This document shows, in pieces, positions 6,001 through 55,013 of a stretch of 64,000 nt of DNA (the first letter of the stretch is position 1; every line of letters starts with the position of its first letter). The DNA is from Macrostomum lignano (lineage: Eukaryota), in contig NIVC01002757.1 in NCBI GenBank assembly GCA_002269645.1, forward strand, positions 62,001 through 126,000, given 5' to 3'. Below the pieces are notes generated by a model that worked only from the letters and a program-made list of their open reading frames with translations, searched no databases and was not told the origin of the DNA. The position numbers and the translations under genes are program-made.

Positions 6001-9000
6001 GCCTTCCGACCAGTACAATGTCCCAAAAAGCGTCGCCACGTTGTTCGCGGACGCTGCCGTAACGGTCGACAGGCCTACGTCCAGCACTTTTGGACTAAGC
6101 GCGGCTGTCGATGCGTTCGAGTAAAACGCTCCTATCACCGCCGATGCGGTTGTCGGTACAAGATAGTCGAGCTGGTTGTCGCTGTGGATCTTCATTCTCG
6201 GAGAAGGAAGGCAGTCCAAACTATCGATCGCACGTCTCCGATTTTCTTGAAGTAGTCCTGCGCCAATTCGAATCCGGCTCAGCGAAGGTTCGCACGGTGT
6301 TGTTCACATACAGCTCAACTGTGCGCAAGCATCACATCGAGTCCAGCGAGAATGATGCTTCTGCACTGTTCAACGATTTCACTAACAGTAAGACAAATCT
6401 TTTCGGCGCTCTGAAAGCTATTAAGGCTCACCTGGTTCGCAGCAGGCGTCAATATTCGAATAAAGTCAAGCGAATCGTGCTCGTAGTGACCAGAGGAAGG
6501 CATACAAAGAGCAGGCGCTCGATTTTACTCGCGGATAAGATCAAACACATGGCTCGATTGTTCGTCATCGGATTCGGTTCGCTGCCTAAATCAGGTCGCT
6601 ATGTTAAATGGTTGGCTAGCAGGCCAAGACGGGTGCATTATCTGAGGATGAAGAAGACACAAGAGTAAGTCTAGGCAATAACTCCTGACTATCCGGACAT
6701 ATAAGTAGTATAAACGCATATAAATTTCAAAAGTACCAAGCACAAAACATCTTGGTACTTAGTATTGTTCTTAATAAGACAAAGCATTCAGAGGCTGGTT
6801 AAGGTCAGGTAAGTTCCTGGACCAAGTTCCAGTGCTCGTAGTAGTAACGAACGATTAATTATTTACGATCCGCGCAGTCAGTAGTAAGTATAGTTAAGTA
6901 GCCAATAGTAAGCACCATTGATTTTTCAGATACAAGTTCATCGCTTCGCGAATCTTTGAGCACGCCTGTCGCAAGCATTGTCGACGACGGCCTAAACGTC
7001 ATATTGGCAAGTGCAAGCGCGACACGTGCCGTCGTCTGCTTACCGAAGTCACGTGGCATCGCGACAAGCGCAGCGGAAAGTGCGTCCGACGCCGCCGGAC
7101 AAAATCTCGCACCTGCTGCTGTAGAGGTCAAAATTCGAATCGCCTGGTGTGCAGAAACGGTCGCCGACTTCGAATCATTGTCCGATACAAGTTCGACGGG
7201 CGTCGAGGCGTCTGTCATAGGCGAGTTCATAAAATCGACACCTCAGCCTCGCTACACGCTCGCTGCCGTCCAGTCAAACTGCGACGTCGCGGCTCTTGCG
7301 ATGCTAAAGGCTGGCGTCGCGACGTTTTGGTACATCGCTACGTCACTAAGAAATCTTGTCGATGCCACACAAAACGGCGCCACCTACGCGCTGTTCGCTG
7401 CCGTTGTCCATCGACTAAACGTCAGCAAAAATGTCGACGCAATCGACGCGGTCATTGGTACCGCGTTACCTGCCGTATTGAGTACAAACTGCATCGTCGC
7501 GGTTGCAAAAAGCGGAGACATTGTTCAAAGCGTCGAGTCGTTTGTCGACACAAGAAAAGAGTTGTCCGGGTTCGAGGCCGGTGCCATCGACATAGCTGCC
7601 GTCGCCGAAACAGTGTAGTCACATACAGCGTTCATAAATGTCGCTGCAGGAAAAGAGTCAAGACTTTAACTCAAGTCTGCTGTAAGTATTCGTAAGAGTA
7701 TTTGCATGCGTGCTTAGAATACAAAAATGCGTCTTGCTCGTTGAAAATCAGCCACGTATGCAAAAGGCAGGCGCGGCGCATCCAAAGGCTGTGTACAGCT
7801 AGGTGCCCACAACTTCCGTCCAGAATTTCCACTACAGCCCAGGGCCAACGATCATATCAGAGTATGGTAAAGTGAAGCTCAACTTCATTTTTCTCCCTTC
7901 TTACTGTGGCTATTTTGAGGGGTGACACTATACGACGTAGCCTATTAGGTTGCGCACTAACCGCGAAAAACTCTGCTTAACTTGCCTCTCTAGCAGTGAA
8001 TTTAATAGCATTTGTAATGCTATTATGGCATTACAAAAGTCGCTCTATTAAAACATTTTCGAAACATTTTCAACAGGCTGCAAGCGAAAAAGTCGTAAGC
8101 ACAGTTTCTGCAACAAGCGCCGACACGCTATAGTTCGAGTTAAAACGCACTACCGCCTGGTTCACGGCGCTTGTCGCCCTGTCTCGCGCAAAACGGAGCA
8201 CCCCATCCAATGTCGCACCGATCGTCGTAAGCTACCGGGCCACTGCCGACGCCACAAAAACGGCTTTTATCGACGCGTAGTCACGCAGACCTGGCATCGA
8301 CGTGGCTGTCGTTGCATTCGACGAACGCGTAAAAGTGGTTTGCGCCTTTGCCGATGCTCGTCGAAGAGACGCAAAGTTCAGCGCTGTCTGTCGCGACGTG
8401 GAGTGATAGTTACCATCGAGAGTTGGCTGCATCCGCACGGCAACAGCTGTAAACGGCGCAGTCGCACTGTCGGCCGAGAGCGAGTCACCTGCAGCCATCG
8501 TCGCGTTCGAGTTAAGGGTCGCTGCGGTCGCGGCAAAGCGGCAAAGGCGGCCGCTGCTGCAGCGAAGGACGGTCGGAAATTCGCTATTGAAACTGTCACG
8601 TGGCAGCGCAGGGCTGGCTGCAAGTGCAGGTAAGTTGAAGCTTTTTTTAATCTTGATTTGTTTATCTTGTCTTTTTATCTTTCTGTTTATCTTTACCATC
8701 TTTTTGCAGACGGATCCGCCGCTCCCACGTCCGCCTCTGTGCATGTACAAAACGCGTTCGTCGAGTGACACGTTGCCATGCCAACCGCCAACTGTCGGTC
8801 ACGCTTTATCATCACCGTCTGGCGCATTCTCGCAATGGATCTGCGACATGCAAAATCGTACGAATAACTCGCCGCCACCGAGTCCGCTGCCGTCGACCAG
8901 TGATCCGCTTGGGACGAAAGTGTCACTCAGGCAAACGAACTGTCCTCGTTAAAGTCTTCACGCCGAAGAAATGTCGCTGCAAAGCTAAACTTTACCGACG

Positions 9001-10629
9001 TTTGATAGCCTGCAAAGCCGCCTGCACTGACAAGCTGCCTAGCAAGGTGTGCAAAAAGTGGGCCGCATCTCGTAAAATTAAGATTTGCCGTCGACACCCA
9101 CACTTGGCTGATCGGCTGTGCGCTGCAACATGTGGAAAATGTAAGCTTAAAGTAGTGGAGCTGTCGTCGATTTTCCTTTTTTATAACTAAGTTATGACTC
9201 TATTTAATTTTCCATCAAACAGGCTGCAGCAAATCGACAATCGTCCACGTAGGAGAGCACTGTCTGCTGGCTCAAAATCGTACACTGCTTGCCAGTCAAA
9301 ATGATACGAGTAGCAACCATAAACTTACCCTTGCAAAGCTGACCACGTTTGAGGCCTGCAGCCGTTCCTGCTTGGCTAATCCTCACTGCCGAGCCTTTGA
9401 CTATAAACGCAGCAGCGGCCACTGCCGCCTGCTCCGCATCAACCACCACAGCCTCGACCGCGACCTTCCGGAACTCAAGCCCACCCCGGGCTGCCTGCTG
9501 TTCGAAAAAGCTTGTCAACGAAAACCAAAAGGCTGCCCGCATCGACGCATTAAAAAGTCTTGGGCCTGCGTTTGTCGTCCATTCTTTGGCAAGGGTCGAC
9601 GTCCGCTGTGTTATCGACGCGCTCTCGTCGCTGTTTACTTCCGACGCAGCCGCCGCCGCTGTGTCCACAAACTTCGCCGAATTTTAATTCCTTGCCACGA
9701 TTGCGAGGACAAGAAGCGCTGGTGCCAGCAAGCCGCTCGGAAGGGCAAGTGCGCCAAGGATTCCCGGGTGAGAAAACTTTGTCCGCACAGCTGTCACAAG
9801 TGCGCCCGACATCGCACTCGGGCAGGACGCGCAGGTCATGGTCATCGGCTAATGCGCCGTCGCATTAGTGCCTGCTCCAAATCTGGCTGGCGTAAGATCG
9901 TTCGAGGTGGATTGTACTACGACAGGCGACTGAAGCTGTGGCGAGTTTATAAGGGAGTGAGTCACAAACGCTGCATTCGCTGCCCAATAGGTTCCAGACT
10001 GATTGTTGGACGCTGCACCAAGCACGGCAAACGGAAGCTGACCTGGATTGTGGTTACTAGACACAGTCGTCGGGGTCATCACAGTCGACCCTGTCGAATC
10101 AAAAAGAAACACCGCGTGGTGAGCTGTCGCGGCTGCGGCGGACTCGATCTAGTTCGAAAAGTTGGCCATTGCGTTCGCAAGCCGGGACACGGCTGGCACC
10201 GTGTGGTGACGAGTACATTCACGGAGCGCGACAGTCGTAAGCATCGCTGCATTGTGCGCCACCATAAGAACACATTCGCGTGCTCGCCGAAGTGTCCCAA
10301 GCGTAGCGTTAGCCAGTCTCGGTGCAAGTGCGGCCGTCGCGTTGTTTGCACTCGGTATTATGTCACCTACCCCGGTCGGCGCCGCTGCGTGGCTAAGAAG
10401 ATCACCCGAAGCGAGAAATGCGTCAGTGCCGCCTCTGGTAAGAACCGTCCTTGACGTCAAATTACTTTTTACAAGCATGAACAAATCCACTATAGTGATC
10501 TACAATTTCTAACTCTTTTTAGATTGCAACGATCAAATCAAGGCGCACGATTGTCAAGCAATCAAGCACTCGGGAATGTGCTCTACGCTGCACCGTCTAT
10601 GCGCGAAAACTTGCGGTCGCTGCAAGTAG
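1..10629 (+). CDS. 3' part of a giant Arg/Lys/Cys-rich repeat protein with vWA, 3x ShKT and PAN/apple domains (5' end outside window; five 1-nt frameshifts as assembled)
   Basis: Exons read by hand with GT-AG boundaries and matching phases: <1-158, 267-495, 590-1105, 1202-1504, 1675-3561, 3693-3996, 4429-4698, 4767-4895, 4992-5538, 5629-6664, 6930-7681, 8077-8629, 8710-9140, 9223-10437, 10523-10629 (TAG). Exon sum 8437 nt plus 5 missing bases = 8442 nt = 2814 codons. The same R/K/C/H-rich motif style runs through all exons. AATAAA at 10742-10747. Confidence 0.85.
4072..4385 (+). mobile_element. tRNA-derived SINE in an intron of the giant gene
   Basis: A-box-like TAGCCTACTAGTTGG, B-box GGTTCGATTC, central TCCTTGAGCAAGACAC..CAGTTCACCCAGCTGTAAAATGGG resembling conserved SINE core domains, TTA-rich tail; second copy at 48998-49207. 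Confidence 0.7.
6154..6965 (+). other. von Willebrand factor A (vWA) domain within the giant protein
   Basis: CRYKIVELVVAVD-[S]SFS (DxSxS MIDAS-like once one T is restored at 6189/6190), then DFLEVVLRQF..VRTVLFTYSS..TNLFGALKAI..KRIVLVVTRG..ARLFVIGFG..; spans intron 6665-6929. Confidence 0.75.
9019..10626 (+). other. Three ShKT domains and one PAN/apple domain in the C-terminal part of the giant protein
   Basis: ShKT-type six-Cys patterns: ACTDKLPSKVCKKWAA..ICRRHPHLADRLCAATCGKC (about 9019-9224), DCEDKKRWCQQAARKGKC..RKLCPHSCHKC (about 9700-9805), DCNDQIKAHDCQAIKHSGMCSTLHRLCAKTCGRCK* (10523-10629). PAN-like TFEACSRSCLANPHCRAFDYKRSSGHCRLL (about 9225-9520). Confidence 0.75.
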
Positions 10630-11409
10630 CATTTGCGCTCCGAAACTGAAAACTTTATTCAAAGCACTCAAAGCACTCTGGTCAAGAAAACTGATTACAT
10701 TTGTTGTGGTGGTTGAACTGAAGCGAGTGACGCTACTCAAAAATAAAACCATTTAGCTGACGAAATTATATTTATCATTTGAAGCTCAACTGACTTTGCG
10801 TGCCTTATTTAGGGTAATTAAGCTCTCAATTATAATTAAGTTAGGCTGTGTTAAGTTAGACTTGAAAAAAAGGTAAAGTTGCATGCTAAATGGACTAATT
10901 TGACCCCAAAAATGCACTCAGTTTGTCGTGATTAAGCCATTTCGAGCCCGCGAAATCTGTCACAAAGTCAGTCAGGCTTGTCTCTAAAATGAGACACTAG
11001 ATTATAGAAAGGGAGACGAGGTTGCTCAAAGCTAAGGAAGGTCCTTCGAAGCGGTCGCATTCACTTCTTCCTTAGTTAACGGGTTGGGCAGGTAATTGAG
11101 TTAAACGAAAAAAGAAGGTAGGTAGAAAAGAAATAAGAGGTTGGATGGTCTGAAGCTGAGAGACGTCAGTCACTTCCTTCTATAAAGGCGTCTGCCCGGA
11201 TTCAAACCAGCCTGCCTAACCTCATATTTCCGTGCGCTTAACCCTTCTCAGTTCCTCGTCATAAGGAAGCTTTTATATCCTTCGTGCCTGGAGTTCTCTT
11301 TCTCCGTCTCTCATTAGCAGCGAATTTTGTAAAGCTGCAACTGACCATGGAATGGGTGACAAGTAGATCTTCTCGCCTTAGTAATTCTACTTATCCTGAC
11401 TGTGGTGCT

Positions 11410-11595
11410 TACAGTGAGCAGGCACACAAGCGCGCGGATACGTACGCAGTCATACGCACAGGCACACACTCACACAGGACAGTACATCTGCCCTAACTTC
11501 AATAATTATCGTTAGGGGCGTTAATTGCACGAGCAGAGCAAAGCCGAGATTCAAATTTTGCCTCAAATTAATGTGACTGCACTTGGAATCGCTAG
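11410..11595 (+). repeat. Dispersed ~270-bp repeat family, partial copy
   Basis: Shares GCAGTCATACGCACAGGCACACACTCACACAGG and TTGCACGAGCAGAGC..AAATTAATG..GACTGC..ACTTGG.ATCG with copies at 24545-24825, 38025-38295 and 42703-42915. Confidence 0.75.
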
Positions 11596-19016: not shown

Positions 19017-27060
<8,044 letters not shown>

Positions 27061-28320
27061 GACCACTGCGTCTCTGTGCGAGGTCTAATGACTTTATAGA
27101 GTGAGTGAAAGTGTCCGGAAGGAACCACTAAACCGGCTGCACGGATACTACGACAAAGGATGCGGCTTAACTTATCAGTAATAGATTTCTAGTCCTAAGA
27201 GCTCTCACCCCCTGCTCTGATCCGAATTGGCTGGCCGCAGAGCCGAAATCCCCCAGCCACTCAGCAATCATTAGTAATTGGGGGATAATTCCTGCCGTCT
27301 CCACCCCGCGTCCCCCTTCCAGTTTCCCTGCCGGGCCACACTCAGCAAATCAGCTTTGCAGAAAGAGAATGGCTGGTTACTATGGACGACAACAACGAAT
27401 GAATGGTAAAAAAGAGACTGGAAGAGTGAATAGAGATGCGTAGAGGCAGACGCAGGGGGAGGTACTTGGCTTAGTGGAAGGACAAACCAGCTGAAGTGCC
27501 CGGGTGGCCTGCAGGTCTGACTCTCGCCCACACGCCCCAGCAGTAAGATTCTAAGCTTCTTTTGTGTCCGCGAACTGCAGCAGCTGTCTCCAGCGGCTGG
27601 GAGCAGCAGCAGTCGCTATTGTCACGGGTCGGGCCTGCAGCTGTGGAAAAAAGCATGCAGTCATACACAGCATTACATGTTTATCTGTCAGTCTTGCAGC
27701 TTTCGCCCCGCAGCGGTACCGCTATCTATTCGGCTATGGATGCCACGCAAGGATGAACCCTTAGGCAGGGAATATCTCGATGAAAAAGTTGAGGCCCTCA
27801 TGGAATCCTTGTAGAAAAGATCTTTACTATCTATAGTTTACTTTTTTCGATTCATTCACATTGAGTCTTGAAAGGCTTTGTCAATTTTTTTGGCTTTGCG
27901 GGCTTTGTCTTCAAACATTGCTGGCTCCCATGGCAAAGAAATAACAAATAGACGACTACTTCGTTAATTCAGTATCGGAAATGTCTATTGAAATGTTCAA
28001 CAACAGCATCGGCAGGGAGTAAGAGAGCATTTAAAATAATCTATTTTTAAAATCACTCTTCAATTTGCGTTCAATTTTTCATTAAACAGAAAGCTCAATT
28101 AAGAGACCAATTTAAGTTTCGCTGGTCAGAAACAACCTTGCAAGCTCGTAAAAAAGTAGTCGATAAGTTGCTGCTCAACAAAATGACAGCATTAGGTTAG
28201 TAGTATATTTAGATTCAAATTTGTCGCTTAATTCAAATCTATAGGCGGAAGGCGTCTTGCATTGTCTAATGGAATAAAAACCTTTAAAATGCCATTACAT
28301 TACAGCTGTGGAGCTATGTG

Positions 28321-28680
28321 ACTACGTAGCACGCAGAAACTGCAGGGTTTTCAGATGTTTTGACGCAAAAAACGCAAATTATACTACTATCTGAAAATGA
28401 AGTAAGTAGTATATGAAAACGATATCCTAAGCGTGATATACTTTAATATGTACTCGTATATGTACATTAATCCATGTACTCATATGTGTACATTAATCCC
28501 ATGTACTGCATTAATCCCTATCTATCTCAAATTGTATATGTACATTGTCTACTTCCATGTCTATCCCAATTCTACATGTGTATTGTCAACTTGTACAGTC
28601 CTTCTATATGTACACTTGCGCATTAATCTACTTCTATGACAATTTTTATATGTACAGTACATTATGTACATTAATCCCCA
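28321..28680 (+). repeat. Left terminal inverted repeat (core 28321-28437, degenerate inner part)
   Basis: 28321-28437 is the reverse complement of 37901-38018 with one A-run indel and three substitutions; inner part made of TGTACATTAATCC-type subrepeats matching 37660-37900 loosely. Confidence 0.9.
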
Positions 28681-31644
28681 ATCTACACGACGGCCCCCGC
28701 TCTGCGTATTTGAATCGTCAACCCCACAAGATTATATGTACAACTCGAAACACTAATTGTTACGTGTACAGCACAGTATATGCGCAGAGGTGGGTCGGTG
28801 TGTGCGCGCCAACTGTACAATCTCACCTACTACCAAATGAGTCAACTAACATTCAAGTTTTACAGAACACGTCATATATGCATATTTATATGTGAATTAC
28901 TCAAAACCAAATGTAACTGATTACGCCATACTACCATTAGTAGAGTTTACAAGTCGAGATTCTTACTGAAAAAGATTACATTCATAATTTTACATTTTTA
29001 TATTGAAAAAGCTGATATCATGTTTATTTTCAACTATTTTCAATAGTTGAAACAGAGAGCATGCAGAAGCGCCCACCCACCCAAATTATACCCAAAATTT
29101 GCAAAGCGGCCGCACATCCAAGAATTAACTCTTCATATTCCGCTGACCCTCAAAAAGCAAACAGTGTACGCAGAAACCGCCGCCCATCCCCAAAATTGGC
29201 GGAGGAGGTGCATGAGTTAGCCAAAAATTGCTGTCCACACTGTTATATCCACTCCTTTTATACTTCATCCCTCTAGAATTCAGCCCTCGTCGCCACTCCG
29301 AGACAATTACGTCATTCCCAACCCCTCTCCCCGAGTCAAAAAAGTTTTCAAAAGACGTATATATATGATACGTATACGATTTATTTAGTCGGCCTCTAAA
29401 TTCAAGACTGTGAAAGCAATGTTTTATATGCTTCGTATCACAGTGCGGATGATACAAGACCCTTGTCGCACTTTATCCGCAAAATATGCCACTGACGCTG
29501 GTGTACACTATGGAATTAATTATGTTGCATGTTGAATCACCCTTTATCTCCGGCCATATTCAAAATTCAACCCCAAGACTTGTTCGAAAACATCCACCCC
29601 TCAGCAGACCCCTATATAGCAAATCGAATTGAACCACTCGCCCCTGTTTCTCTCTGCACCCTTCTAAATGCCAAGGAATTTCGACCCCTCTCTCCATTTT
29701 CAGTGTACAAACAGATCTTTTCACAGCACGGACCCTATATTAAACCTCATTCAGCAAAACCCCTCTTCTCCAATTACGTCATCCATGCCGCCCCAGTTAG
29801 CAAGAAACTAACTTTCAATGCACACATCAACCCCACGAATCTGAGCAAATCCGAGTCAACCTCCAACTGCATCGACCCAATACCCCTGCATCTGTCAATG
29901 TACACAACCTATGAATCAGTGTATCCTCTGCATACAATTCCGAGACTGAATTCTATAGATGTGTTTTGTCAAAGAAATACTTTGGCACTATAACCAATGC
30001 GGTATACTAGAAGTAGTGAAGTCCACCCGCCCAAAAACGTGCTGCTATGTCAATTCTATCGCCTCCCCTACCTTCTCACTTCAAGCTTTCAGACTCTATG
30101 AAAGTTCGATCGCTCGAAGCAGGAATGAATCACCCACGGACCTCTCCAAGTTGGAATTCCGTCCAAGTTTATTAAAAGCTAAATTAGTAGCTCGTAAAAA
30201 GCACATTTCATAAAAGGCGAGTTTTCTACAGTTTCTTTAATTTTACCGTTTCAAGTTACACTTTGTTGATCAAAATCAGTAATTTCATCACTGGAAACCA
30301 TAATTTCAACAGCTAATTTGCCCAAATGCCGTTTCAACTTTACTTGAGACGGCTTCGAAGCAAGAATGATCCCACACGGAAGTCCACAAGCCAGCCCAGC
30401 CTAAGAAATGGTTGATTAATGGTAAAAATTTATTAGAAATGCAAACTTTTTCACGAAAACCACGAGTTTTCCTCATTTTTCGATTTTTAACGTTAAAATG
30501 CTTACTTTATGGATCGAAATCTGTCATTTTATCAATAGAAATCATAATTTTAGCTAATAAACCATCAAAAATGCTGTTTAATCATTCAAATAGGCATGTA
30601 TATTGCCCAAGAAGCTGGGGAAATATTGTATAGACACTGTAAAAATTGGGGCTAAAAACACAGTCTGCTATTAAACTTAAAGTTTTCAGTGTTCGATTGA
30701 TTTCGATTACTAAATCATGCCATTGATGCTATTTTAAACGTTATTCTCAGTTCCGAAGCTCCCAACAGCCTCTTTTAGATGCACTGAATCCTGAATCAGT
30801 TTTGCTGCATACTTTGCATGTTGAATCACCCTTCAATTCAAAGATTCTCCACTACATACATTCTAGCCATATTCAAAATTCAACCCAGGACTATTAATGT
30901 TCGCCAATATGGAGAGAACAGCACAACACCTACCCCAGCCTCACCAAGGCAATTCTTTACTACCGCGTAAATGCCATAACTGACTCTCTGTCCCTATAAC
31001 CCCAGGTCCATCCCTAAACATTACGTAAACAGAAGTAGAAAACTCTGTCTCTCTGTTTTGGCTTGTGACAGGGATCTCCGTCACTTCATTACTCTTTGTG
31101 GATATTTTAGATGATGGCAAGAGCTTTTCATCGACTATTACTCTTCACCAAGCCTCTGTCAATCGGATGCTTTGCACACAAGCCCCATTTCACCAAGGTT
31201 ATTAAATTGATACAGCGATTTTTAACAACCATTTTCTCGCAGAGACCGGCGGGCCTTAAAAACCACAGAAGTTATCTTTCATATTTTCATCTGTATTTAG
31301 CTATTATTGGTCCGCCAAGGTATTGTATTTTGAATAAACACCGTTTTCTATCAGATTTAAGTCGAAAAGACATGCTGCAAGAGGAAGCTGTCTTCCTAAT
31401 TAAGAGACTGTACTCTGGCGGAGCAGCAGTTTCCACTCCTGCGAGAATGCTGGTTGGGTGGCTCCGCTCAGATCCAATAAAAAACCGCATGAGAAAAGAA
31501 TTTATGGGGTATTTTCGACCCCAACTTTTCTATACCAAATGCGGAACCGAGTGTACAATCGTACACTAATCTAGAAAATATAGACCCGGGAAAGAAAACC
31601 ACGCACACCTCTCGTGCCCCTACCCCATCCTCCCTCTCGCGGGG

Positions 31645-31652
31645 TATATAAA
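31645..31652 (+). promoter_or_regulatory. TATA box upstream of the putative first PolB exon
   Basis: TATATAAA in GC-rich context, about 190 nt before ATG 31839 whose short frame ends at a GTGAGT donor (31972). Confidence 0.5.
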
Positions 31653-33041
31653 GCGGGTGAGAGCTGCTGCAGCCGCATCAGCAAAAGCAGCCAGCAGCAG
31701 AAGCCACAACAGCAGCATCACAGCTAGCAGCAACAGCAGAAGCAACGACAGCCACCAGCCCTCTGCCTCTAACATCAGCTGCAGCAGCATCATTAACATC
31801 ACCAGCAGCATCAACAACCATCTACCTTCCCCATCGAAATGGCATCGAAGCGCTCTGCTGCGGAAGCGGCTATTTCAGCCTTGTGGGGGCAGGCCGGCCC
31901 ATCCAGGCAGCAACCGCAGCAACAACAGCAGCAGCATCAGCCTCCGGCAGCAAAGAGGGGACGACAGCTAGGTGAGTCTCTGCGCGCGTAAAACTATGCT
32001 TTTAGCATTTGCAAAATCTAAAATCAGAAAAATAGGGCTGTATAATTGCTTTAGCATTTGTGTGTGATTTGCAAACTTCACGCTTGTTGAAATATGGGCT
32101 TTCTTTGAAACCACAGCTTTCCATCTTTAACATTCATTTTGGCTTAAAATTTCTGTAATTGCTTTTCAGCTTTAGCATTTGTGTGATTTGCAAACTTAAC
32201 GCTTGTTGAAATATGGGCTTTCTTTGAAGCCACATCTTTCCATCTTTAACATTCATTTTGGCTTAAAATTTCTGAATTTCCTCTTGACATAGATGTTGAA
32301 GTTGGATTTCTCAAATTCAGGCCTATTGAAATAACAGAGTTTTAGAGAATATCCGCAACAGCAGTATAGCCGGATAATGCCTGTAGAGGATAGTCATAAA
32401 ATTTCTGGGGTTATGTGACTAGAGAAGCAAAAACAGCAATCCTGTGGCGAGCGCGTGACTTAGCGGGGGGCGGGCAGGCGGCAGTGATAAAATCAACCCC
32501 CGATTTTTGGGCATGATTATGTAATCACCGCTGCAATTGACAGTAGGGGTTTTGGCAGCAATAAAACTTGGCTGCTACAGTGAGGGTTATTAATCAGACA
32601 GCTTTAAAAATCCAAAAGCGGCCGCGCGGTATTGTTGCTAGGTGTCAAGGAGGTACAATGGAGGCACGTGCTGATAGGGGTTTTCTTAAATTTTACAATG
32701 GCTGCTGCGGCAGGATCAGTGTTATCAGGGTCATCAATCAAACATTTTTGACAGCCTAAAATTCGAAGCGGGGGTCAATCAACCCCACATTTCTTTTGTT
32801 GCTACGTGTCGGAACGTGCCGAGTTGGGGTTTTTACAACTCGCCGATTTTTGTTGCTTGGGGTGGGGCGATAAAATTGCTGCTGCTGCAGGCAATCAATC
32901 AAAAGTTTTTGACAGTTGTAAAATTCCAAGCGGTCAGAATTTTAGTCACCATGCGCATTTTTATTGCAGATTTGGCTCAATTTCAACCCCCACCCCAGCC
33001 CGACACTGTCGAAGGCGATGGTAAGGAGTTGATTTTATTTC

Positions 33042-36000
33042 ATGAGTCATACACCCGCAGCCTCTCGCAATTCTAATTTCAAAACCCTCCATTTTTCAGG
33101 CTTTATTGCGCGTCTTGGCGGGGCAAAGGCCCTGCCAAAATTTAAGGCAAAAGGGGTCGAATACGAGATAGTATTCACAAATTTGAGCGATATTCGCTCA
33201 ACATTTGAGAAAATAATAGCAACCCTCTGCGCCGACCTGAATGCAGATGACTTCGTCGCATCTAAGCTGACGGCGGACAATATGATGCTCGCCATCAATG
33301 TCCCGCCCGTCCGCCGCAGCCGCTTCACTGCAGAGCTTGTCTTCAAGCATATCAACAAGGTGCTGCAGTCGGACTCCAGCGTCTTGGGCAACAACTTTAA
33401 ATTGTTTTTGCTCAAGGCCTGGGTCCCGCGGGGCGGCTGCGGCAGCTTAGATGCGGCGGAGCGCCACATTCAGGCCAGGCATGCTATGGGCTATAATTAT
33501 GTCATCATCGCCAACAGCGACAAGCGCTGTCTAATTCGAGCGCTGCTTGTCGCCAAGGCCTTTGCCGACCTGCAGGCCAAAGTCATCACGAGAACTACGT
33601 GGCAAACAATCAAGGCCGACTCCCCAATGCAGAAGAAGATTACTGGAGAATTACAAATTACCGCCAAATTGTATTCGGTGAGTAAAAATGTTCTTGCGCA
33701 TTTTAATTTGCATTTTTATTAATATACAAATGTTTTAGTCTTTATCAACCATCACACAGGCCGGGCCTTTCGGGGTTGACGTGCTCCCCCAACTGCTCGC
33801 CGCCATGAACGCTCAGTCGCCCGGCCGAGATTTCGGCGTCCGGGTGTACAGTGCCGAGGAGGGCAATACGTGCGTGTACGCCCTACCCGGCCGCGAAGTG
33901 CTGAATCTGCACCTAATTGGCGAACACTTTAACGCGGTGTGCAAGGTGCCGCCATTTTTCGGAGCCCGCCGCTATTGTGACCGCTGCCAGCAGCCGTATG
34001 ATTGCAACTCTGGAGAGCACAAGTGCGCCAACACCTGCCCTCAATGCAAAGCGCCTGGCTCCAATTGCAAGAGCCTGCGGTGTGACTATAAGCGCTGCGC
34101 TGATTGTGGCCTCAAGTGCTACAATCAGCAGTGCTTCGACAACCACCTTCGCAAGAACCGGGCTGGCCGGTCGCGCTGCAGCTCAACCCGTGTCTGCCCC
34201 AATTGCGGGTATTGCGAAGACCTGAAAGCCGGTCAAAAGGAGCCAGAGCACAAGTGCGGCCACATCAAATGCCCACTGTGTAAACAGTATGATGAGGCCG
34301 GCTCGCATTTGTGCTTCGTCAAGGCTCCTAAAGTGAAAGCATCGACTATGCCGTACGTGTTCTACGATACGGAAACATACACGGACGAGGAGAAGCAGCA
34401 TCACGTGCATCTGGTGACTGCCGTCACGTGCTGCGAGACCTGCTCCGGCCGGGCGTTTCCGCGCGAGACTTGCCGCCTCTGCAATGGCCTGCATAGCGCC
34501 GCCAATTGTCTGACTGGCCGCGATCTGGGGGAGGAATTCTCCAATTGCGTCAGCCACTCAGACTGCGCCTGCCAAATGGCCGATTTTGTGGCTGTGGGCC
34601 CGGCCTCGCTGAATGCTTTTTTCACCTGGCTGAGCACCACATTCCGCGGCGGCGTCATTGTTGTCGCGCATAATGCATCAGGCTATGATGCGTTTCTACT
34701 GCTTGGCGCTCTGCTCAACGGCCTGGCCAAGAAGCGGCCCCAAGTACTGTTCCAGGGCAGCCGGCTAATGAGCATGACGGTTGACAAATTGGTATTCAAA
34801 GATTCGTTAAATTTTATACCAATCCCGCTTGCGCAATTCCCCAAAGCGCTGGGGCTCGCTGACACAAAGCTGGCCAAGGGGACGTTTCCCCACGAGTTCA
34901 ACAAGCCGGCTAATTGGAACTACGTGGGCCCCTACCCGGCTATTGAATATTATGGCGGCAAAGCAAACAAGGACTATGACTCAATCTGTGCTTGGCTAGC
35001 CTCGCGACAGGGCGAGTTGTTCAACTTTAATCGGGAGTATCTCGATTATTGTTTGAGCGACACAGTCCTGCTTCGCGAGGGCTGCATCAAGTACAGGGCA
35101 ATAATTGGTGAAATTTGTGACGGCCTGGAACCATTTGTACAGGCCAATACGATTGCCAGTTTGGCAATGGCCGTTTTCACCACCCGATTTATGGAGCCCA
35201 ACTCGCTCGGCGTGATTGCCCGGCAGGCCGACCAGCAGTCATTCAAGGCGCGCAAGTGGCTGGCCTATTTGAATGCCACCGAATTTGGCGGGCGGCTGCG
35301 AACCTGCGACTCTACTGGCGGCGAGGCTGTCATTCTCGGCCGCAAGGTGGACGGCTTCGATGAGGCGAGCAACACTGTCTTGCAGTTTCATGGCTGTTTC
35401 TACCATGGCTGCGAGCAGTGCATGCCTGATCAGGATGCTGTCCACCCGCTCAAACGGCAGCCTCTGAGCCATATCCGCCACGAGACTGAGTGGTTCACTC
35501 GCGAGTTGGAGCGGCAAAACTACAGTGTTCGTACAATTTGGGAGCACGAATACGACACTGTATTGGCATCGCAGGCTGATTTCATTGCCGCAACTGCACA
35601 TCTGCGCGCTCCACTCAAGATGGAAGATGCTCTCTACGGCGGCCGCGTAGAATGTTTTATCCCGCATGCTGTGGCCAGCGAGACTGAGACTCTCAAATAT
35701 CGGGATGTGGTGAGTAGTGATACTACTAATATAGTAGAATATTTTGCAAAAATACAGTTTATGAAAATAATGTTTTATTTCAACTTGCAGGTCTCTCTGT
35801 ACCCGACGGTGCAGTCGAAAGACCCGTACCCGATTGGCCACCCGGTGCAACATCCGACGCCGCAAGTGCTAGATTCTGACGCGCTGGCTAGTTACTTTGG
35901 TATTGCCAAAGTGACTGTGTTGCCGCCGTCAAATTTGCACATTCCGCTGCTGCCCTACAGGGTGCAAAAGAAGCTCTTTTTTGGGCTTTGCCGCACCTGT

Positions 36001-37169
36001 ATGGAGCAGCAGTGCGGCGACGATTGTGACCACTCAGACGAGCAGCGGGCACTGACTGGTACCTGGGCAACGCCGGAGCTGCAAAAGGCCTTCCAGTTGG
36101 GCTACCGGCTGCAGGTGGTGCACGCGCTAGCCTACTGGACAGAGAAGCGGACCGGTCTGTTCAGTGACTATGTCAGCACCTTCCTCAAATTGAAGGCTGA
36201 GTCGAGCGGCTCCCCCGGCATGTCGGATGAAGACAAGGCCGCCTATATTGCCGATTTCTTTGCAAAGGAGGGCGTCACGCTGGACAAGGTCGAGCCCAAC
36301 CCCGGACTTCGCTTTGTAGCGAAAATCTTTTTGAATTCGTAAGTAATTATAAATTCTGTTTTTTAAACGATTTTCTTCTACTAATAGTAGCACTTCTTTT
36401 CACAACACACAGGCTCTGGGGCAAATTTTGTCAGCGTGACGACCTGACATCGACAGAAATAGTATCCAGCTACGAGGACTGGCTCGCCTGGCTGACCGAC
36501 CCCAACCTCAAAGTCAAGGCCTGCGAACCGATTGGCAGCGAGTTTATGCTGCTAGAGTACCGGCACCGCTACTTTAATCAGCGGCCCTTCCGGTACTCCA
36601 ATGTGCCAATCGGTGTCTTTACGACCACGCAGGCCCGGCTGCGCCTGTACGAGGCATTGGAGGGGCTCGGCGAACGGGCCATTTACTGCGACACTGACTC
36701 GTAAGTAATGCATTGATAAATTATTTTAGAATTGAATAGTTGGCATGTGGAACTAATTATCTCTCTCCCCACACCCAGGGTCGTTTACCGGCATTCCGAG
36801 GGCCAATGGGAGCCGCCCCATGGCACGAGCCTCGGAATGTGGACCGACGAGGTGCCCGCAGGCAGCCGGATGACCGACTTTGTAAGTGGAGGGCCCAAGC
36901 TCTACACTTACATTGTCGAGGATGCGGCCGGAGTCCAGAGCCAAGTCCTGAAATGCAAGGGCATCCGCCTGACTCCGGAGATTCGGGAACGCAGCGACGA
37001 ATTGCGCAGTGCCCTACTACACGGCGGCTCCCTGAAACTGCCGCAGTTTCAGTTCAGGCGCGACAAGGCGTCTTGCACCATACACACTGTTAGTATGGAC
37101 AAGACGTTTCAGCGCGTCCTGACGAAACGCGTGTACGGGACCTGCAGCAGGCCTTATGGCTATAAATAA
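33042..37169 (+). CDS. polB: Protein-primed family B DNA polymerase (pPolB), intron-containing, about 1270-1295 aa depending on first exon
   Basis: Exons (33042 or 33100)-33677, 33760-35709, 35791-36338, 36413-36700, 36779-37169; introns of 82, 81, 74 and 78 nt, all GTRAGT..CAG. Spliced product has ExoI YVFYDTET, ExoII AHNASGYD, ExoIII YCLSDT, LYGGRVE, YRDVVSLYP, KIFLNSLWGKF, YCDTDSV, LGMWTDE, SGGPKLY, KCKGI. No stops or frameshifts. Confidence 0.95.
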
Positions 37170-37659
37170 TGTATTCTAGTTGTGACTGACAATTCAATGT
37201 ACATTTTGCAATATTAAATTAGTAAAATCTATTTATTGTACATAATTTGCATTGTAATACTGCTGTATTTATCAGAATCTATTTGCTGTATATATATAAT
37301 TCATGTACATAGAGCATTTTTGTATTGTGTGTGGCGAAATTGCCAATGTAAAAATCTATTGTACATATTTTACATGTCAAACCTGTTTAAAATCATTTAT
37401 GAAGAGAAAATTATTGAAAAAACAATGTAAAATTTTCTGTATATTCTATTTGCTGGTGATGGTGTACATGTCTCGATTCCTGTAATATGCTACTGATTAA
37501 ATGTAAATATATCTTCATTGTAAATACTTATACATGATGTACGCTACACTGTTAGTTGACTCATTTGGTAGTAGATGAGATTAGTAATTCTCGCCTCTGC
37601 GTACATGTAGTATTGTACATGTAATTTTGGTGCGCGCTCAGACCGTCTGGGGATGACAC

Positions 37660-38018
37660 TGTACATGTAGAGTGTAGATTAATGCACATACTGTGTACAT
37701 ATAGAATTGGGGATAGACATGGACATTTGAGATATGGATTAATGTACATGGAATTAATGTACATATCCAATTTGAGATATTTAGGGATTAATGTACATGG
37801 AATTAATGTACATATCCATTTTGAGATAGATAGGGATTATTGAACATGGAATTAATGTACATATATGAGCACATGGATTATTACGACTACATATTGCCAC
37901 ATCACGCTTAGGATAGCGTTTTTGTATACTACTTACTTCATTTTTCAGATAGTAGTATAATTTGCGTTTTTTGCGTCAAAACATCTGAAAACCCTGCAGT
38001 TTCTGCGTGCTACGTAGT
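37660..38018 (-). repeat. Right terminal inverted repeat (core 37901-38018)
   Basis: Reverse complement of the left TIR; ends GCTACGTAGT. Confidence 0.9.
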
Positions 38019-38024
38019 TATGTG

Positions 38025-38295
38025 CACTCTGGCGCACTTTAAGCGACATTGTCTCACAACCGGCGAGAGGCATTACTGCCCATTCCACCGACTGCCCTTG
38101 AGCAGTCATACGCACAGGCACACACTCACACAGGAGTTTACAGCGGCCCTGACTTTATTTATCGTTAGCTAGCCATGTACACTTTACTGTGCCTTGGGGT
38201 TGACCCCCAAGGGCGTCAATTTGCACGAGCAGAGCCAAGCCGAAATTCCAATTTAGGCCCAAATTAATGCGACTGCCACTTGGGATCGAGCCCGA
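38025..38295 (+). repeat. Dispersed ~270-bp repeat family copy abutting the right TSD
   Basis: Homologous to 24545-24825, 42703-42915 and 11410-11595; internal hairpin CCTTGGGG-TTGAC-CCCCAAGG. Confidence 0.85.
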
Positions 38296-42702: not shown

Positions 42703-42915
42703 CTCGATTCCAAGTGCAGTCGCGTTAATTTGGGGCACAATTGGAATCTCGTGCAATTAATGGTCTTGAGGACCAACCCCCAAGGCGCAGTGAAGTGTAC
42801 ATGCCTAACGATAAATTAAGTCCGGGCCTCTGTACATTCCTGTGTGAGTGTGTGCCTGTGCGTATGTCTGCTCAGGGGGAGTCGGCGGGATGGGCAGTAA
42901 TGCCTCTCGACGCGC
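42703..42915 (-). repeat. Dispersed ~270-bp repeat family copy
   Basis: Begins GCTCGATTCCAAGTGCAGTC as at 24548; shares the hairpin and GT-rich core. Confidence 0.85.
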
Positions 42916-49397: not shown

Positions 49398-52300
49398 TCA
49401 ATGATCGTCATTAAGCATCTGCTTCATCAGCAACTGCTGGTCCTGGTAACAGCGAGAACACAGGAAATTGGTCTCCTCTCGAGCGAACATGTCGCAGTTC
49501 GGGCCGACACACTGCATCAGAGCCGAACGGCGCATTTGTTGGTCGATAATTTCGGCAGACCGGCGCTTCTGTAATTCGTCTAATTGTGAGAACCGAGCCA
49601 TAGCCGAGGTCAGGTAGCTGCTAACTGCGTCAGTGAAATGTGGCGGTCGATTAGTAACGCCCAGGTGGGCGCATAGCAACCCGGTTGAGGCGCTATCCAG
49701 TAGCGCCTGGTCCGCCACCGAGGAGGCATCAGCTGGTGAAGTTGGCGTTGCAACCGACGGCCATTTACTAGATTTACCTGTTCGCCTAATTGGTAGACGC
49801 TGCTGCATGGCTTTGAGCAGTTGATGGCCAAGAGATCGGCTCGGGTTCTGTTGGCCCTGCGACTGGGAAACAAGGACGGGAGGGGTAGGTGTTAGTACGA
49901 TAAACTAGTACTAGTATAACATGATCCACTACGTTACACTGTTACACTACATGTTACAGTAGATGTTACACTATACTTTACAGTAGCTCTTACACTATAT
50001 GTTACAGTAGCTGTTACACTATATGTTACAGTAGCTGTTGCACTGTATGTTACAGTAGCTGTTACACTATATGTTACAGTAGCTGTTGCACTGTATGTTA
50101 CAGTAGCTGTTACACTATATGTTACAGTAGCTGTTACACTGTATGTTACAGTAGCTGTTACACTGTATGTTACAGTAGCTGTTACACTGTATGTTACAGT
50201 AGCTGTTACACTACATGTTACAGTAGCTGTTACACTACATGTTACAGTAGCTGTTACACTATATGTTACAGTAGCTGTTACACTACATGTTACAGTAGCT
50301 GTTACACTACATGTTACAGTAGCTGTTACACTACATGTTACAGTAGCTGTTACACTACATGTTACAGTAGCTGTTACACTATATGTTACAGTAGCTGTTA
50401 CACTACATGTTACAGCAGCTGTTACAGCATCTGTTACACTATATGTTACAGTAGCTGTTACACTACATGTTACAGTAGCTGTTACACTACATGTTACAGT
50501 AGCTGTTACACTACATGTTACAGTAGATGTTACACTACATGTTACAGTAGCTGTTACACTACATGTTACAGTAGCTGTTACACTATATGTTACAGTAGCT
50601 GTTACACTACATGTTACAGTAGCTGTTACACTACATGTTACAGTAGCTGTTACACTACATGTTACAGCATCTGTTACACTACATGTTACAGCATCTGTTA
50701 CACTACATGTTACAGCATCTGTTACACTACATGTTACAGCATCTGTTACACTACATGTTACAGCATCTGTTACACTACATGTTACAGCATCTGTTACACT
50801 ATACTTTACAGTAGCTGTTACACTACATGTTACAGCATCTGTTACACTACATGTTACAGCATCTGTTACACAACATGTTACAGCAGCTCACCATGCCCCC
50901 TGGATACAATCCATCAACACCGCCGCGCATTCTACGACAGTCGAGAGTAGCAGATCTCTGCTGCAACTGCGAATGCAACTGTTGTTGCTGCTGCTGCTGT
51001 TGATACTCAACAAAGCCGCTATCGTCTGCTGAAACAGCACCGACTGTTGCCATAGACAACTGCGCCGCATTGCCAACTGAACTACCCGAACGAGTTAGTC
51101 CAACTACTACTGGGCGTTGAGTAACAGCAGCAACGGCAGCCTGAGCGACAGCCGCCGGAAGCGGCTGCGGCGGAGCCACAGGCAATCTCAGAGTTGAGCA
51201 TCTCAGATAAGAAGCCAGCAGTTTAGCTCGAAGCCTGCCGCCCATTTCTGTATCGGGCGTCGCCACTGGAGCGTCGTTAACAACAGCCGCAGCGGCAGAT
51301 TTCGACGACCATTTCCAGTGCGGCCCGGGATCGGCACTAAAGTGCAGAGGCAGCGGGGTGTGCAGATCGCAGCAGCACAATGGAACAGCGTAGGGCAAGT
51401 TTACAGCAGTTTCCATGGGAACCAATGCGGAGAAATGAGCTGCATCGTAGGCTAGCAATACCGGATGCTTAGAACAATGCTCTGGTTTCTCTAACAGCGG
51501 CAGATAGATTCCGGCAAACGGTATTGGAGCTAAATTGTCACCTTCGGAGTCTTTGACAAACTGATCGGCTATCACTATGATGGGCCGGCGGAATACATTG
51601 GCGGCTACGAATACGTGGATTTCTTCTAGAGAATCCAGCTGATGCTGATGCTGCTGACCGATCTGCTGCTGTTGTTGCTGCTTAGGCTGGGCGCTAGCCA
51701 GTTGTAGCAACGATTTCCATTCCGATTGCCATTCCGACTCGCTTAATCTCAGGCCCGTGGCTCGGTACAGCTCCCGGGCTGTCTGCCATCTCCAGCGCCT
51801 GTACACAGCTGCACTATGAGACAGCAAATATTCGTGCAACGCGCTTCGGAATACCAATTGACGATCGTGGAAGCCTAGACTGCTCAGACTGATAGCATGT
51901 AGAAGGCAGTTGCCATCGCCGCTCGTTTGCAGAGGCCACAATCGTTGGGACAGGCCAAGGTCGTGCCTAGGTATTAGTGTGAGGACTTACGCGTCAGCTG
52001 CTTGTACTCTAAGCATATTAAATCTCTAGTCTACCTTCAGGAAACTGGTAACAATGTCAGGCTACATCCCTAGTTTACATTCAGGAAACTGGTAACAATG
52101 TCAGGCTACATCCCTAGTTTACCATTAGGAAACTGGTAACAATGTCAGGCTACATCCCTAGTTTACCATTAGGAAACTGGTAACAATGTCAGGCTATATC
52201 CCTAGTTTACCATTAGGAAACTGGTAACAATGTCAGGCTATATCCCTAGTTTACCATTAGGAAACTGGTAACAATGTCAGGCTACATCCCTAGTTTACCA

Positions 52301-54428
52301 TTAGGAAACTGGTAACAATGTCAGGCTACATCCCTAGTTTACCATTAGGAAACTGGTAACAATGTCAGGCTACATCCCTAGTTTACCATTAGGAAACTGG
52401 TAACAATGTCAGGCTACATCCCTAGTTTACCATTAGGAAACTGGTAACAATGTCAGGCTATATCCCTAGTTTACCATTAGGAAACTGGTAACAATGTCAG
52501 GCTATATCCCTAGTTTACCATTAGGAAACTGGTAACAATGTCAGGCTACATCCCTAGTTTACCATTAGGAAACTGGTAACAATGTCAGGCTACATCCCTA
52601 GTTTACCATTAGGAAACTGGTAACAATGTCAGGCTACATCCCTAGTTTACCATTAGGAAACTGGTAACAATGTCAGGCTACATCCCTAGTTTACCATTAG
52701 GAAACTGGTAACAATGTCAGGCTATATCCCTAGTTTACCATTAGGAAACTGGTAACAATGTCAGGCTATATCCCTAGTTTACCATTAGGAAACTGGTAAC
52801 AATGTCAGGCTACATCCCTAGTTTACCATTAGGAAACTGGTAACAATGTCAGGCTACATCCCTAGTTTACCATTAGGAAACTGGTAACAATGTCAGGCTA
52901 CATCCCTAGTTTACCCTCAGGAAACTGGTAACAATGTCAGGCTACATCCCTAGTTTACCATTAGGAAACTGGTAACAATGTCAGGCTACATCCCTAGTTT
53001 ACCATTAGGAAACTGGTAACAATGTCAGGCTACATCCCTAGTTTACCATTAGGAAACTGGTAACAATGTCAGGCTACATCCCTAGTTTACCATTAGGAAA
53101 CTGGTAACAATGTCAGGCTACATCCCTAGTTTACCATTAGGAAACTGGTAACAATGTCAGGCTACATCCCTAGTTTACCATTAGGAAACTGGTAACAATG
53201 TCAGACTACATCCCTAGTTTACCATTAGGAAACTGGTAACAATGTCAGGCTATATCCCTAGTTTACCATCAGGAAACTGGTAACAATGTCAGGCTACATC
53301 CCTAGGTAGTTTACCCTCAGGAAACTGGTAACAATGTCAGGCTACATCCCTAGTTTACCATTAGGAAACTGGTAACAATGTCAGACTACATCCCTAGTTT
53401 ACCATTAGGAAACTGGTAACAATGTCAGGCTATATCCCTAGTTTACCATCAGGAAACTGGTAACAATGTCAGGCTACATCCCTAGTTTACCATTAGGAAA
53501 CTGGTAACAATGTCAGACTACATCCCTAGTTTACCATTAGGAAACTGGTAACAATGTCAGGCTATATCCCTAGTTTACCATCAGGAAACTGGTAACAATG
53601 TCAGGCTACATCCCTAGGTAGTTTACCCTCAGGAAACTGGTAACAATGTCAGGCTACATCCCTAGTTTACCCTCAGGAAACTGGTAACAATGTCAGGCTA
53701 CATCTCTAGTTTACCCTCAGGAAACTGGTAACAATGTCAGGCTACATCCCTAGTTTACCCTCAGGAAACTGGTAACAATGTCAGGCTACCCCTTACTACT
53801 AACCAATGGTAGACAAAATTAACCCAAAGTAACCTTACCACCAATTCAAACAACCAGCCTGCTCCAAGTTAACCAGAGTCCCCGTATCCAACAGTTCCTT
53901 CTCCAAAAAGGCTCGAAATTCCAACGGATAGGTTGACAAGTCAGGCAATATGAAGGAATAACTACCATTGGCGCCGCAAGCACTACCATTTCGTGACAGG
54001 CTGCGACCATTGCCAGAATTAGAGCAACCGCTACCAGCTGTACCGCCACATGCGCCATTGTTGTTTATCCTCCTACCCGGCACATTTTCCGCTTGCACAA
54101 CAGCCCTATTCGATGCCAACACTTCGTCAAATGCGCACGAGAAGCCGCGTTGGGTGCGAGATTCTACGCCCGAAGAGGCTGAGGAAGAATTTATAGCGGC
54201 ACAACGCGCCGACACCATTCTGGATGCCTCGCCTACAGCAGCTGGCATGCTTGGTGACTGCTGCATCTGTTGCTGCTGGGCCGGCGAGTCTTCGCTACTA
54301 AAAGCGCTGCTGCATGCGCTACTACTGCTACTACTGCTAGTAGCGGTGCTACTATTACTTCCGATTAAATTGGCATTGGTTTTGACAGTTAATGGCTCCG
54401 GTTTGCTATCTAAATGTACAGTGTTCAT
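49398..54428 (-). CDS. OTUD7B: OTUD7/Cezanne-type OTU deubiquitinase with C-terminal A20 zinc finger, 709 aa, 3 exons
   Basis: Exons 54428-53839, 51966-50892, 49862-49398, phases match, 2130 nt. LEQAGCLNWW, TSGDGNCLLHA, GFHDRQL, RRWRWQ, EWQSEW, SLEEIHVFV, APIPFAGIYLPL, LAYDAAHFSALV; A20 finger CVGPNCDMFAREETNFLCSRC. OTUD7A vs 7B is not distinguishable and additional 5' exons are possible. Confidence 0.9.
49935..50880. repeat. 24-bp minisatellite (two related 12-mers) in OTUD7 intron 2
   Basis: GTTACACTACAT-GTTACAGTAGCT, changing to GTTACAGCATCT near 50660-50880. Confidence 0.95.
52039..53790. repeat. 44-bp minisatellite (about 40 copies) in OTUD7 intron 1
   Basis: AGGAAACTGGTAACAATGTCAGGCTACATCCCTAGTTTACCATT head-to-tail. 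Confidence 0.97.
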
Positions 54429-55013
54429 TGCTGCATCAAAATAAGATTGTTCATGTCATGAATTGAATTTATTGATTTGGAGTTTGGTAGTGTATTTGGT
54501 TATAAAATTGTACAATTTACAGTTTTTTTCCTAGAGCTCCACACTTATTCAAAATCATTGAAGTTTATCATTTTAGTTGGGAATCAGTTTCATTTTTACT
54601 TAGCTAGTGATATTTGGGATAGATAAATCCCTCTACATAGCTCTTTTATCTGAATTCATTCTACAACATGGCTCTAGCACTATTTGACTCTTTTTCATCT
54701 GTCTTACCAATATTTAGATTATCTTTACCTTCTTATTAGCCAAAAATTTAAACTAGCATAAGATAGAAAATAAAATCAAAGACACTGAAAGTTTAATTAG
54801 AAAATATTTAAAATATATTATTTGATATTTTCGAAATTAATATTGTGCAAAATGAGTTAAACACAGTATACTTCTAGAAGTAGTGCAATTGATGTGTTCT
54901 ACATCAAAATTTCAAGGGAATTTTTAGTTTGATAGCACTATATAGCTATTAAATAGCCACTGCTGCAACAGTTAAGCATGGCATATTCAAGGATAGTTAT
55001 TTAAGGTATTTTA

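Follow-up and report, generated by a model that had tools for sequence, protein, structure and literature searches.

A protein-primed DNA polymerase gene with spliceosomal introns marks a probable two-segment Polinton in the flatworm Macrostomum lignano

A 64,000-nucleotide stretch of the Macrostomum lignano genome (GenBank assembly GCA_002269645.1, contig NIVC01002757.1, positions 62,001 to 126,000; hereafter the window, in whose numbering positions are given) contains a mobile element with a virus-type DNA polymerase gene split by introns. We consider it probable that this element is one half of a bipartite Polinton, in which an intron-rich replication segment (R) and a segment with integrase and capsid genes (S) would complement each other in trans. 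The argument draws on the structure of the gene, two spliced junctions, the ends and target-site duplications of the element, the complementary gene sets and matching termini of the two segments, and selection on their genes. An earlier, sequence-only reading of the window had put the introns forward as the novelty; the divided genome is the more important finding, and the introns alone are less novel than that reading claimed.

The polymerase gene probably comprises seven exons and six introns, with 1,312 codons; its first exon and intron are putative:
31645..31652, + strand: TATA-like box TATATAAA, 5' of exon 1, with a promoter role suggested by its sequence
31839..31971, + strand: exon 1 (putative), ATG at 31839, Q-rich with basic clusters
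31972..32969, + strand: intron 1 (putative), 998 nt, GTGAGT..CAG, phase 1
32970..33020, + strand: exon 2, 51 nt
33021..33099, + strand: intron 2, 79 nt, phase 1, GTAAGG..CAG (donor GTAAGG, not GTRAGT)
33100..33677, + strand: exon 3, predicted terminal-protein domain, PRGG linker and first half of the vOTU protease
33678..33759, + strand: intron 3, 82 nt, GTGAGT..CAG, phase 0, interrupting the vOTU domain
33760..35709, + strand: exon 4, vOTU His, Cys-rich region, exonuclease motifs I-III, VSR-like insertion and start of motif A
35710..35790, + strand: intron 4, 81 nt, phase 0, splitting polymerase motif A
35791..36338, + strand: exon 5, motif A through motif B
36339..36412, + strand: intron 5, 74 nt, phase 2, within motif B
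36413..36700, + strand: exon 6, motif B through motif C
36701..36778, + strand: intron 6, 78 nt, phase 2, within motif C
36779..37169, + strand: exon 7, ending with the stop codon

Introns 2-6 have a GC content of 25-39%, against 52-59% in the exons, and all five start with GTRAG and end with CAG; in coordinates, lengths, GT..AG ends and AT-richness they are as the sequence-only reading described them. A scan for AT-rich GTRAG..CAG intervals of 60-120 nt returned five in 33001-37200; 500 shuffles averaged 0.02 and never gave more than 1. Introns 4, 5 and 6 cut motifs A, B and C, respectively. Read successively with the frame carried over, the exons contain no internal stop, and exons 4-7 align full-length to intronless homologues with gapless junctions, the phase-2 junctions missing the split codon alone (the segments matched in homologue P0046 are residues 292-933, 934-1123, 1125-1219 and 1221-1359). 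Intron removal thus restores an in-frame family B polymerase, as had been proposed. Six checkable metagenome loci (from the set L111-L116, L118) are intronless across all three of these junctions, and a seventh across the one junction it covers. Retention of four of introns 2-6 breaks the frame or introduces stops, the exception being 35710-35790, which is in frame and stop-free. Because the introns break the reading frame, the gene depends on host splicing, and here too the earlier proposal stands. Its comparison with host introns is in keeping, as to size, with nine candidate introns of 60-106 nt that the same heuristic returned in window 1-11500, the location of a large host gene of many exons that encodes VWA and PAN domains (231-10454, + strand). 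Intron 1, missing from the sequence-only reading, was seen in 12 of 12 scorable copies of family A (931-2930 nt), the family of the window element; copies of a second family, B, likewise start with a MAKRS-type sequence, followed by an intron of the same phase.

No run containing the window stretch is recorded as RNA; the putative transcript evidence consisted of contigs from four runs over it, three of which (X1, X5 and X6, from three studies) are guessed to be RNA. Contigs of these three skip 35710-35790 and 36701-36778 exactly, with GT..AG ends, and in X5 and X6 contigs the alignment halts at the edges of 36339-36412. The fourth run, the deepest, has neither of the two joints. Among the joints listed there is none for introns 1-3 and 5, the junction of exon 1 included. 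The spliced contigs may derive from other family A copies. The joints at introns 4 and 6 are best read as splicing, because every genomic copy examined keeps the introns; of the junctions that the sequence-only reading wanted checked against RNA, these two are the ones that the contigs appear to bear out.

The encoded protein matches Pfam DNA_pol_B_2 (PF03175; E 1e-27), and the structure predicted for public gene model P0002 (mean pLDDT 72.6) has phi29 polymerase as its best structural match. We read it as a family B DNA polymerase of the protein-primed type (pPolB) with predicted terminal-protein, vOTU, exonuclease, VSR-like and palm parts. Of 61 outside homologues, 49 have a candidate linking serine (33369-33371), 57 and 56 keep the vOTU cysteine (33528-33530) and histidine (33925-33927), respectively, and 60-61 keep the ExoI aspartate plus three exonuclease acidic sites. 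The linker between the terminal-protein and vOTU domains (33420-33437) ends in PRGG, a candidate self-cleavage site whose first glycine is conserved in 55 of the 61 homologues and whose second is not; we take PRGG to resemble the C-terminus of ubiquitin. In the model, the fold of exon 3 runs strand-strand-helix-strand-strand-helix-loop-strand, the loop containing the serine; this is the terminal-protein layout given in PMC11161782. The VSR-like motif FHGCFYHGC at 35386, of which FHGCxxHGC is common to Mya and other homologues, suggests a link between the protein and the mollusc-type pPolB2 of Jeong et al. (10.1101/2023.08.22.554363). A FastTree analysis of 43 rows, run without bootstrap and without published pPolB2 reference sequences, joined families A and B (100) beside the VSR-type homologues on a long branch, apart from five canonical pPolBs of the same genome.

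Searches of the M. lignano genome, in which the best candidates were scored (93 of 170 for the polymerase, 123 of 1588 for the integrase), gave at least 99 matches to exon 4 in at least 91 places. The copies form two families by amino-acid identity to exon 4, A at ~88-100% and B at ~60-68%. Intron sites could be scored at 90 of 102 positions in 17 family A stretches and 167 of 186 in 31 family B stretches, and none of these 257 sites was intronless; all six introns have the same position and phase in both families, with altered or doubtful splice ends at 8 of the 257. Gaps concentrate in the introns (in family A, 93 per 5,749 nt of intron versus 35 per 50,142 nt of exon; in family B, 345 per 14,074 nt versus 27 per 87,700 nt). 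The introns resemble neither each other nor their counterparts in the other family (similarity z scores -1.2 to 2.7). They are old and not introner-like. Scoring intron presence and position across genomes had been suggested earlier; done within this genome, it shows the introns to be common to both families, so the idea of a recent gain does not hold. Ratios of nonsynonymous to synonymous substitution (dN/dS), each taken against one reference copy, are 0.09-0.16 in 16 family A copies and 0.02-0.16 in 30 family B copies, so that the polymerase is under purifying selection. The closest proteins in UniRef are labelled Macrostomum lignano, and spliced automatic models of the gene are already there as 'DNA-directed DNA polymerase', at odds with the notion that such genes are systematically overlooked.

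Another reading would make the polymerase a domesticated host gene, or a pseudogene in decay, into which introns were inserted after mobility was lost. The introns are indeed host-like in size and donor, and among copies in which exons 3-6 are complete, a stop or frameshift interrupts 8 of 13 in family A and 10 of 24 in family B (5 and 14, respectively, are uninterrupted). As the main account this is almost certainly wrong, because the copies are dispersed, separately inserted and intron-bearing: they lie in the at least 91 places above, 34 different target-site duplications occur among 38 elements, inverted repeats reach 99-100% identity over 0.9-1.4 kb, and every scorable copy of both families has the six introns.

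The element that carries the gene is delimited as follows:
28321..38018, unstranded: whole element, family A R (replication) segment, 9,698 bp, ends 5'-ACTAC...GTAGT-3', compared with 17 family A stretches
28315..28320, unstranded: left target-site duplication TATGTG, 6 bp
38019..38024, unstranded: right target-site duplication TATGTG, 6 bp
28321..28560, + strand: left terminal inverted repeat, perfect over 77 nt and 85% over 241 nt, with patches to ~28851
37795..38018, - strand: right terminal inverted repeat
29230..29364, unstranded: non-coding block of 135 bp, with 80-88% identity near the ends of 4 of 4 family A partner elements tested
28852..31600, unstranded: left arm, non-coding in the window copy (rich in indels, lacking codon periodicity and any Pfam family)

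The first 30 nt of the left repeat are the family A terminal signature, which the partner elements have in common, and the 135-bp block is possibly a shared cis signal. Mobility, claimed earlier, is supported by 38 of 71 stretches, which carry both ends and an exact 6-bp duplication. Lengths are 8.5-10.4 kb in 27 of 30 polymerase elements and 13.8-15.5 kb in three, whose extra DNA contains no Polinton-type gene. The left arm of some family A copies encodes a PC4-like protein (Pfam PC4 match E 1e-5) and a dUTPase, both lost from the window copy; family B copies likewise have a divergent PC4-like gene, and their third frame gave no usable Atlas or Pfam match. No integrase, capsid, ATPase or protease gene was found in the window element, nor any integrase, capsid or ATPase match in the 30 polymerase-bearing elements with both ends defined. 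The element is therefore not a full Polinton; those genes sit on separate partner elements.

Three other possibilities were considered and dropped. An integrase hidden by introns in the left arm of the window copy was rejected on the lack of periodicity, the many indels and the lack of a Pfam match above the cut-off in 44 short and three longer frames. The longer family A copies are not a full-length form, since their extra DNA, where looked at, is retroelement-like insertion or tandem repeats with no Polinton-type gene. That the window element lies inside a Polinton end remnant had an 18-nt match alone in its favour (E 0.06).

Two elements chosen solely for the family B end pattern proved to lack a polymerase and to contain genes for integrase, capsid and ATPase. 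In the one that was annotated, all frames are uninterrupted; they encode a Fic protein, several small products, an rve integrase (E 1.8e-9), minor-capsid-like and core-like proteins, a major capsid protein, a protease-like protein and an ATPase, the minor capsid and protease labels resting on position, weak matches and motifs. The major capsid protein is predicted to be a double jelly roll (PBCV-1 Vp54, E 2e-19, and also a mavirus match) and is related to F54H12.2-like proteins; no relatives were found in viral_contigs. Within the genome the partner integrase and capsid proteins form two subfamilies, at 97-100% and ~80-88% identity, with at least 56 integrase places. Among ten further partners, all with inverted ends, six of the second subfamily start with ACTACGTA or ACTACATA like family A, and four start with ACTACTA like family B. 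Exact 6-bp duplications flank 10 of the 12 partners (one judged by eye), lengths are 10.15-10.9 kb apart from one of 11.9 kb with a duplicated end, and no polymerase match occurs inside any of the 12. The Fic-domain gene (L178:602-1405, Pfam E 7e-14) is found on family B partners; none of the six partners in family A has it. Short contigs (P0121-P0123) also encode capsid proteins with 80-81% identity to that of the partner, which may represent a third family or another host species.

The gene sets of the two segments are complementary, and two matched pairs exist, R-A with S-A and R-B with S-B. Over the first 30 nt of 49 elements, identity is 0.73 between R-A and S-A and 0.70 between R-B and S-B, similar to the 0.68-0.76 within a class, and falls to 0.46-0.51 between members of different families; four 16-nt end variants are common to R and S within a family, and none across families. 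The segments are inserted apart, with 3 cases on the same contig among 91 polymerase and 56 partner-integrase places and the nearest 45 kb from each other. Synonymous divergence (dS) between families A and B is ~2.5 for polymerase exon 4 and 1.6-2.4 for integrase, capsid and ATPase, with nonsynonymous divergence (dN) far lower. The split is thus equally deep in both segments, implying that the division is older than the split and that both halves have been kept under selection. In R, S and the palindromes described below, the first 30 bases seem to be made up of three short, interchangeable blocks reshuffled from copy to copy; in some cases a copy's two ends are unlike each other.

These observations bear on a further alternative, that both types arose by deletion from a full-length Polinton of ~20 kb, still present as an unassembled or rare element or a circulating virus, and are mobilised as non-autonomous elements. 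The two gene sets do sum to one standard Polinton of ~20 kb, the searches were non-exhaustive, and a 5.2-kb internally deleted copy and gene-less copies exist. We nevertheless find it quite improbable. Such derivatives would be expected to keep the long inverted repeats of the parent, and R and S have in common only ~30-50 terminal bases and the 135-bp block; the same division recurs in two families at saturated dS, with purifying selection on both halves; and for one family B end pattern all 13 end pairs found span 8.4-10.5 kb.

Gene-less elements with the same ends (L147-L150, L040, L041, L153-L158; 3.4-9.5 kb, with one family A arm or family B ends) are mainly self-inverted in 12 of 12 cases (67-100%), with arms 97.6-100% identical. 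Eight have exact duplications, which argue against assembly artefacts; some are duplicate haplotypes. Snap-back palindromes are a by-product of strand-displacement replication, through template switching.

For the bipartite Polinton that we favour, these parts suggest the following cycle. Host RNA polymerase II and the spliceosome would produce the pPolB mRNA, and the terminal-protein domain would prime synthesis at the ACTAC ends common to either segment, with the vOTU domain predicted to cut off the terminal-protein domain. Strand-displacement synthesis would then yield linear DNA of both segments, plus the snap-back palindromes. The partner integrase would insert either segment with a 6-bp duplication, and the partner capsid, ATPase and protease would package both.

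Ordinary Polintons are also present in this genome; they are 16-17.5 kb long, with AGTAGT ends and with integrase, capsid and intronless pPolB genes of their own, and five of five pPolBs read are uninterrupted frames. Their presence allows for one-way parasitism, in which the polymerase element is a capsid-less satellite using the integrase and capsid of the partners, themselves copied by a canonical-Polinton or host polymerase and able to do without the polymerase element. Consistent with this, open pPolB frames are available, there are loci where family B copies and canonical Polintons are nested, and capsid-bearing Polinton-like viruses with no detectable replication gene have been described (10.64898/2026.06.19.733378). 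The account is unlikely to be right, as partner ends match R elements family by family, with variants in common, and are unlike the canonical AGTAGT, and the other pPolBs seen are all distant. Protein priming is end-specific.

Nesting goes both ways, with family B copies inside a Polinton (in the capsid gene, in the integrase gene and near the end) and canonical Polintons inside family B elements (C4072:14540-22994, C1412:127475-136586, C1158:30380-40909, which equals the C1157 locus, and C271:282527 onward). We claim no insertion preference for canonical Polintons, as the loci are few and without a background rate. Canonical Polintons as the integrase source were demoted once partners with matching ends appeared. 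A 7.5-kb element at C3000:49700-57208, whose ends are AGTAGT and whose integrase has 98% identity to that of C114, is a reduced canonical Polinton.

Several points weigh against a two-segment Polinton. The system is known from genes and ends, so that the steps in trans are conjectural and the particles hypothetical, and the expression evidence concerns the polymerase gene alone. The terminal match is short, ~30 nt, and past base 32 the repeats differ by class; bases 28-50 are common to R-B and S-A and not to same-family pairs, which implies that ends were exchanged between families and makes the pairing less clear-cut. Complete canonical Polintons, with which family B copies are nested at four loci, could serve as helpers. 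A rare element with both modules is possible, given that the best 93 of 170 polymerase and 123 of 1588 integrase candidates were scored. Finally, the counts overstate independent events, because some contigs are duplicate haplotypes and each comparison uses a single reference.

If the two segments do form one system, it may, as we suggest with less conviction, be an animal virus with a multipartite double-stranded DNA genome, with segments of equal size, independent integration, the same double-jelly-roll capsid, reassorting ends and two parallel lineages. Like multipartite viruses, it has complementary gene sets on separate molecules and matching termini, these being ~30 nt long with bases 28-50 pairing across families. 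Bidnaviruses, which are bipartite with a Polinton-derived pPolB, also have two segments with matching termini (PMC8502044), and in the Acheta domesticus segmented densovirus replication and structural genes lie on different segments (PMC10267136). Both differ in being non-integrating single-stranded DNA viruses with parvovirus-type capsids, whereas the flatworm pair has a double jelly roll, is integrated by an rve integrase and is known from genes alone. According to the available text of a 2016 review, the animal multipartite viruses are bidensoviruses and one RNA virus, and its plant table has no multipartite double-stranded DNA virus (PMC5094692).

The closest relatives are the animal Polintons or Mavericks (polintoviruses, adintoviruses) with a VSR-bearing pPolB2, with which the R element shares the pPolB domains, an apparent VSR-like insertion, inverted ends and a 6-bp duplication, and the partner segment the usual genes for integrase, capsid, ATPase and protease (10.1101/2023.08.22.554363, PMC11161782). 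Polintons have inverted repeats of 100-1500 bp and duplications of 5-8 bp (10.1101/2023.08.22.554363). The R element has the protein-primed family B polymerase, inverted repeats and target duplication of a Polinton, and lacks an integrase in cis, capsid, ATPase and protease genes in cis, a length of 13-25 kb and intronless core genes. The flatworm genes are instead spread over two separately inserted elements of ~10 kb, the pPolB has six introns, and the ends are ACTAC as opposed to the AGTAGT of the genome's canonical elements. Linear plasmids and transpovirons likewise keep a replication module while the morphogenesis module is off the element (PMC11161782), but the flatworm element is nuclear, spliced and integrated, and the module it is missing is retained by a cognate element that has the same ends.

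That Polinton genes are generally intronless, as the sequence-only reading stated, agrees with the available text of PMC8097293 and 10.1101/2022.07.12.499685, which describes intact core genes as intronless. Spliceosomal introns inside Polinton-type elements do occur in dinoflagellate introner-bearing Polinton-like elements (10.1101/2025.03.18.643946) and in intron-bearing cargo genes of nematode Mavericks. Unlike these, the flatworm introns lie in the core polymerase, are fixed in two old families, are mutually dissimilar and never absent, and belong to a gene under purifying selection. On a 2.2-kb metagenome contig, L119, an intron of 139 nt with GT..AG ends lies at 915-1053, in motif B and 8 nt from the flatworm intron, and an A32-like ATPase gene follows; the intron may be an independent gain in an unrelated Polinton-type pPolB. 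With the dinoflagellate introners, it speaks against introns being unique to the flatworm gene. Metagenome contigs L111-L115 (8-9.6 kb) carry an intronless 1,345-aa pPolB and two small frames, with no integrase, capsid or ATPase match over several kb; they could be a polymerase-only segment elsewhere, and an end pair was not seen. In the literature as available, with Kapitonov and Jurka 2006 and Repbase outside its scope, we found no Polinton study of Macrostomum lignano, no bipartite Polinton and no intron-rich core pPolB.

Near the element, the window contains a TRAF-like host gene with RING and zf-TRAF domains (22809-27084, - strand) and an A20-like host gene with OTU and zf-A20 domains (49398-54455, - strand). 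To the right of the element, a 108-nt inverted repeat pair (90%; 38061-38168 and 42805-42912) encloses a 546-aa frame with no Pfam match.

Polintons are defined by a polymerase and an integrase together, and a divided form would depart from this definition. Surveys have kept a pPolB only when linked to an integrase or to all core genes within 20 kb (10.1101/2023.08.22.554363), or have ignored introns (10.1101/2025.04.19.649669); a divided, intron-rich form would escape both filters. The introns themselves may reflect spare length in a segment relieved of most genes. A stable two-segment Polinton in a laboratory flatworm, with dozens of dated copies per segment, would open to observational test how divided genomes originate, the use of a protein-primed polymerase in trans and the existence of Polinton particles.

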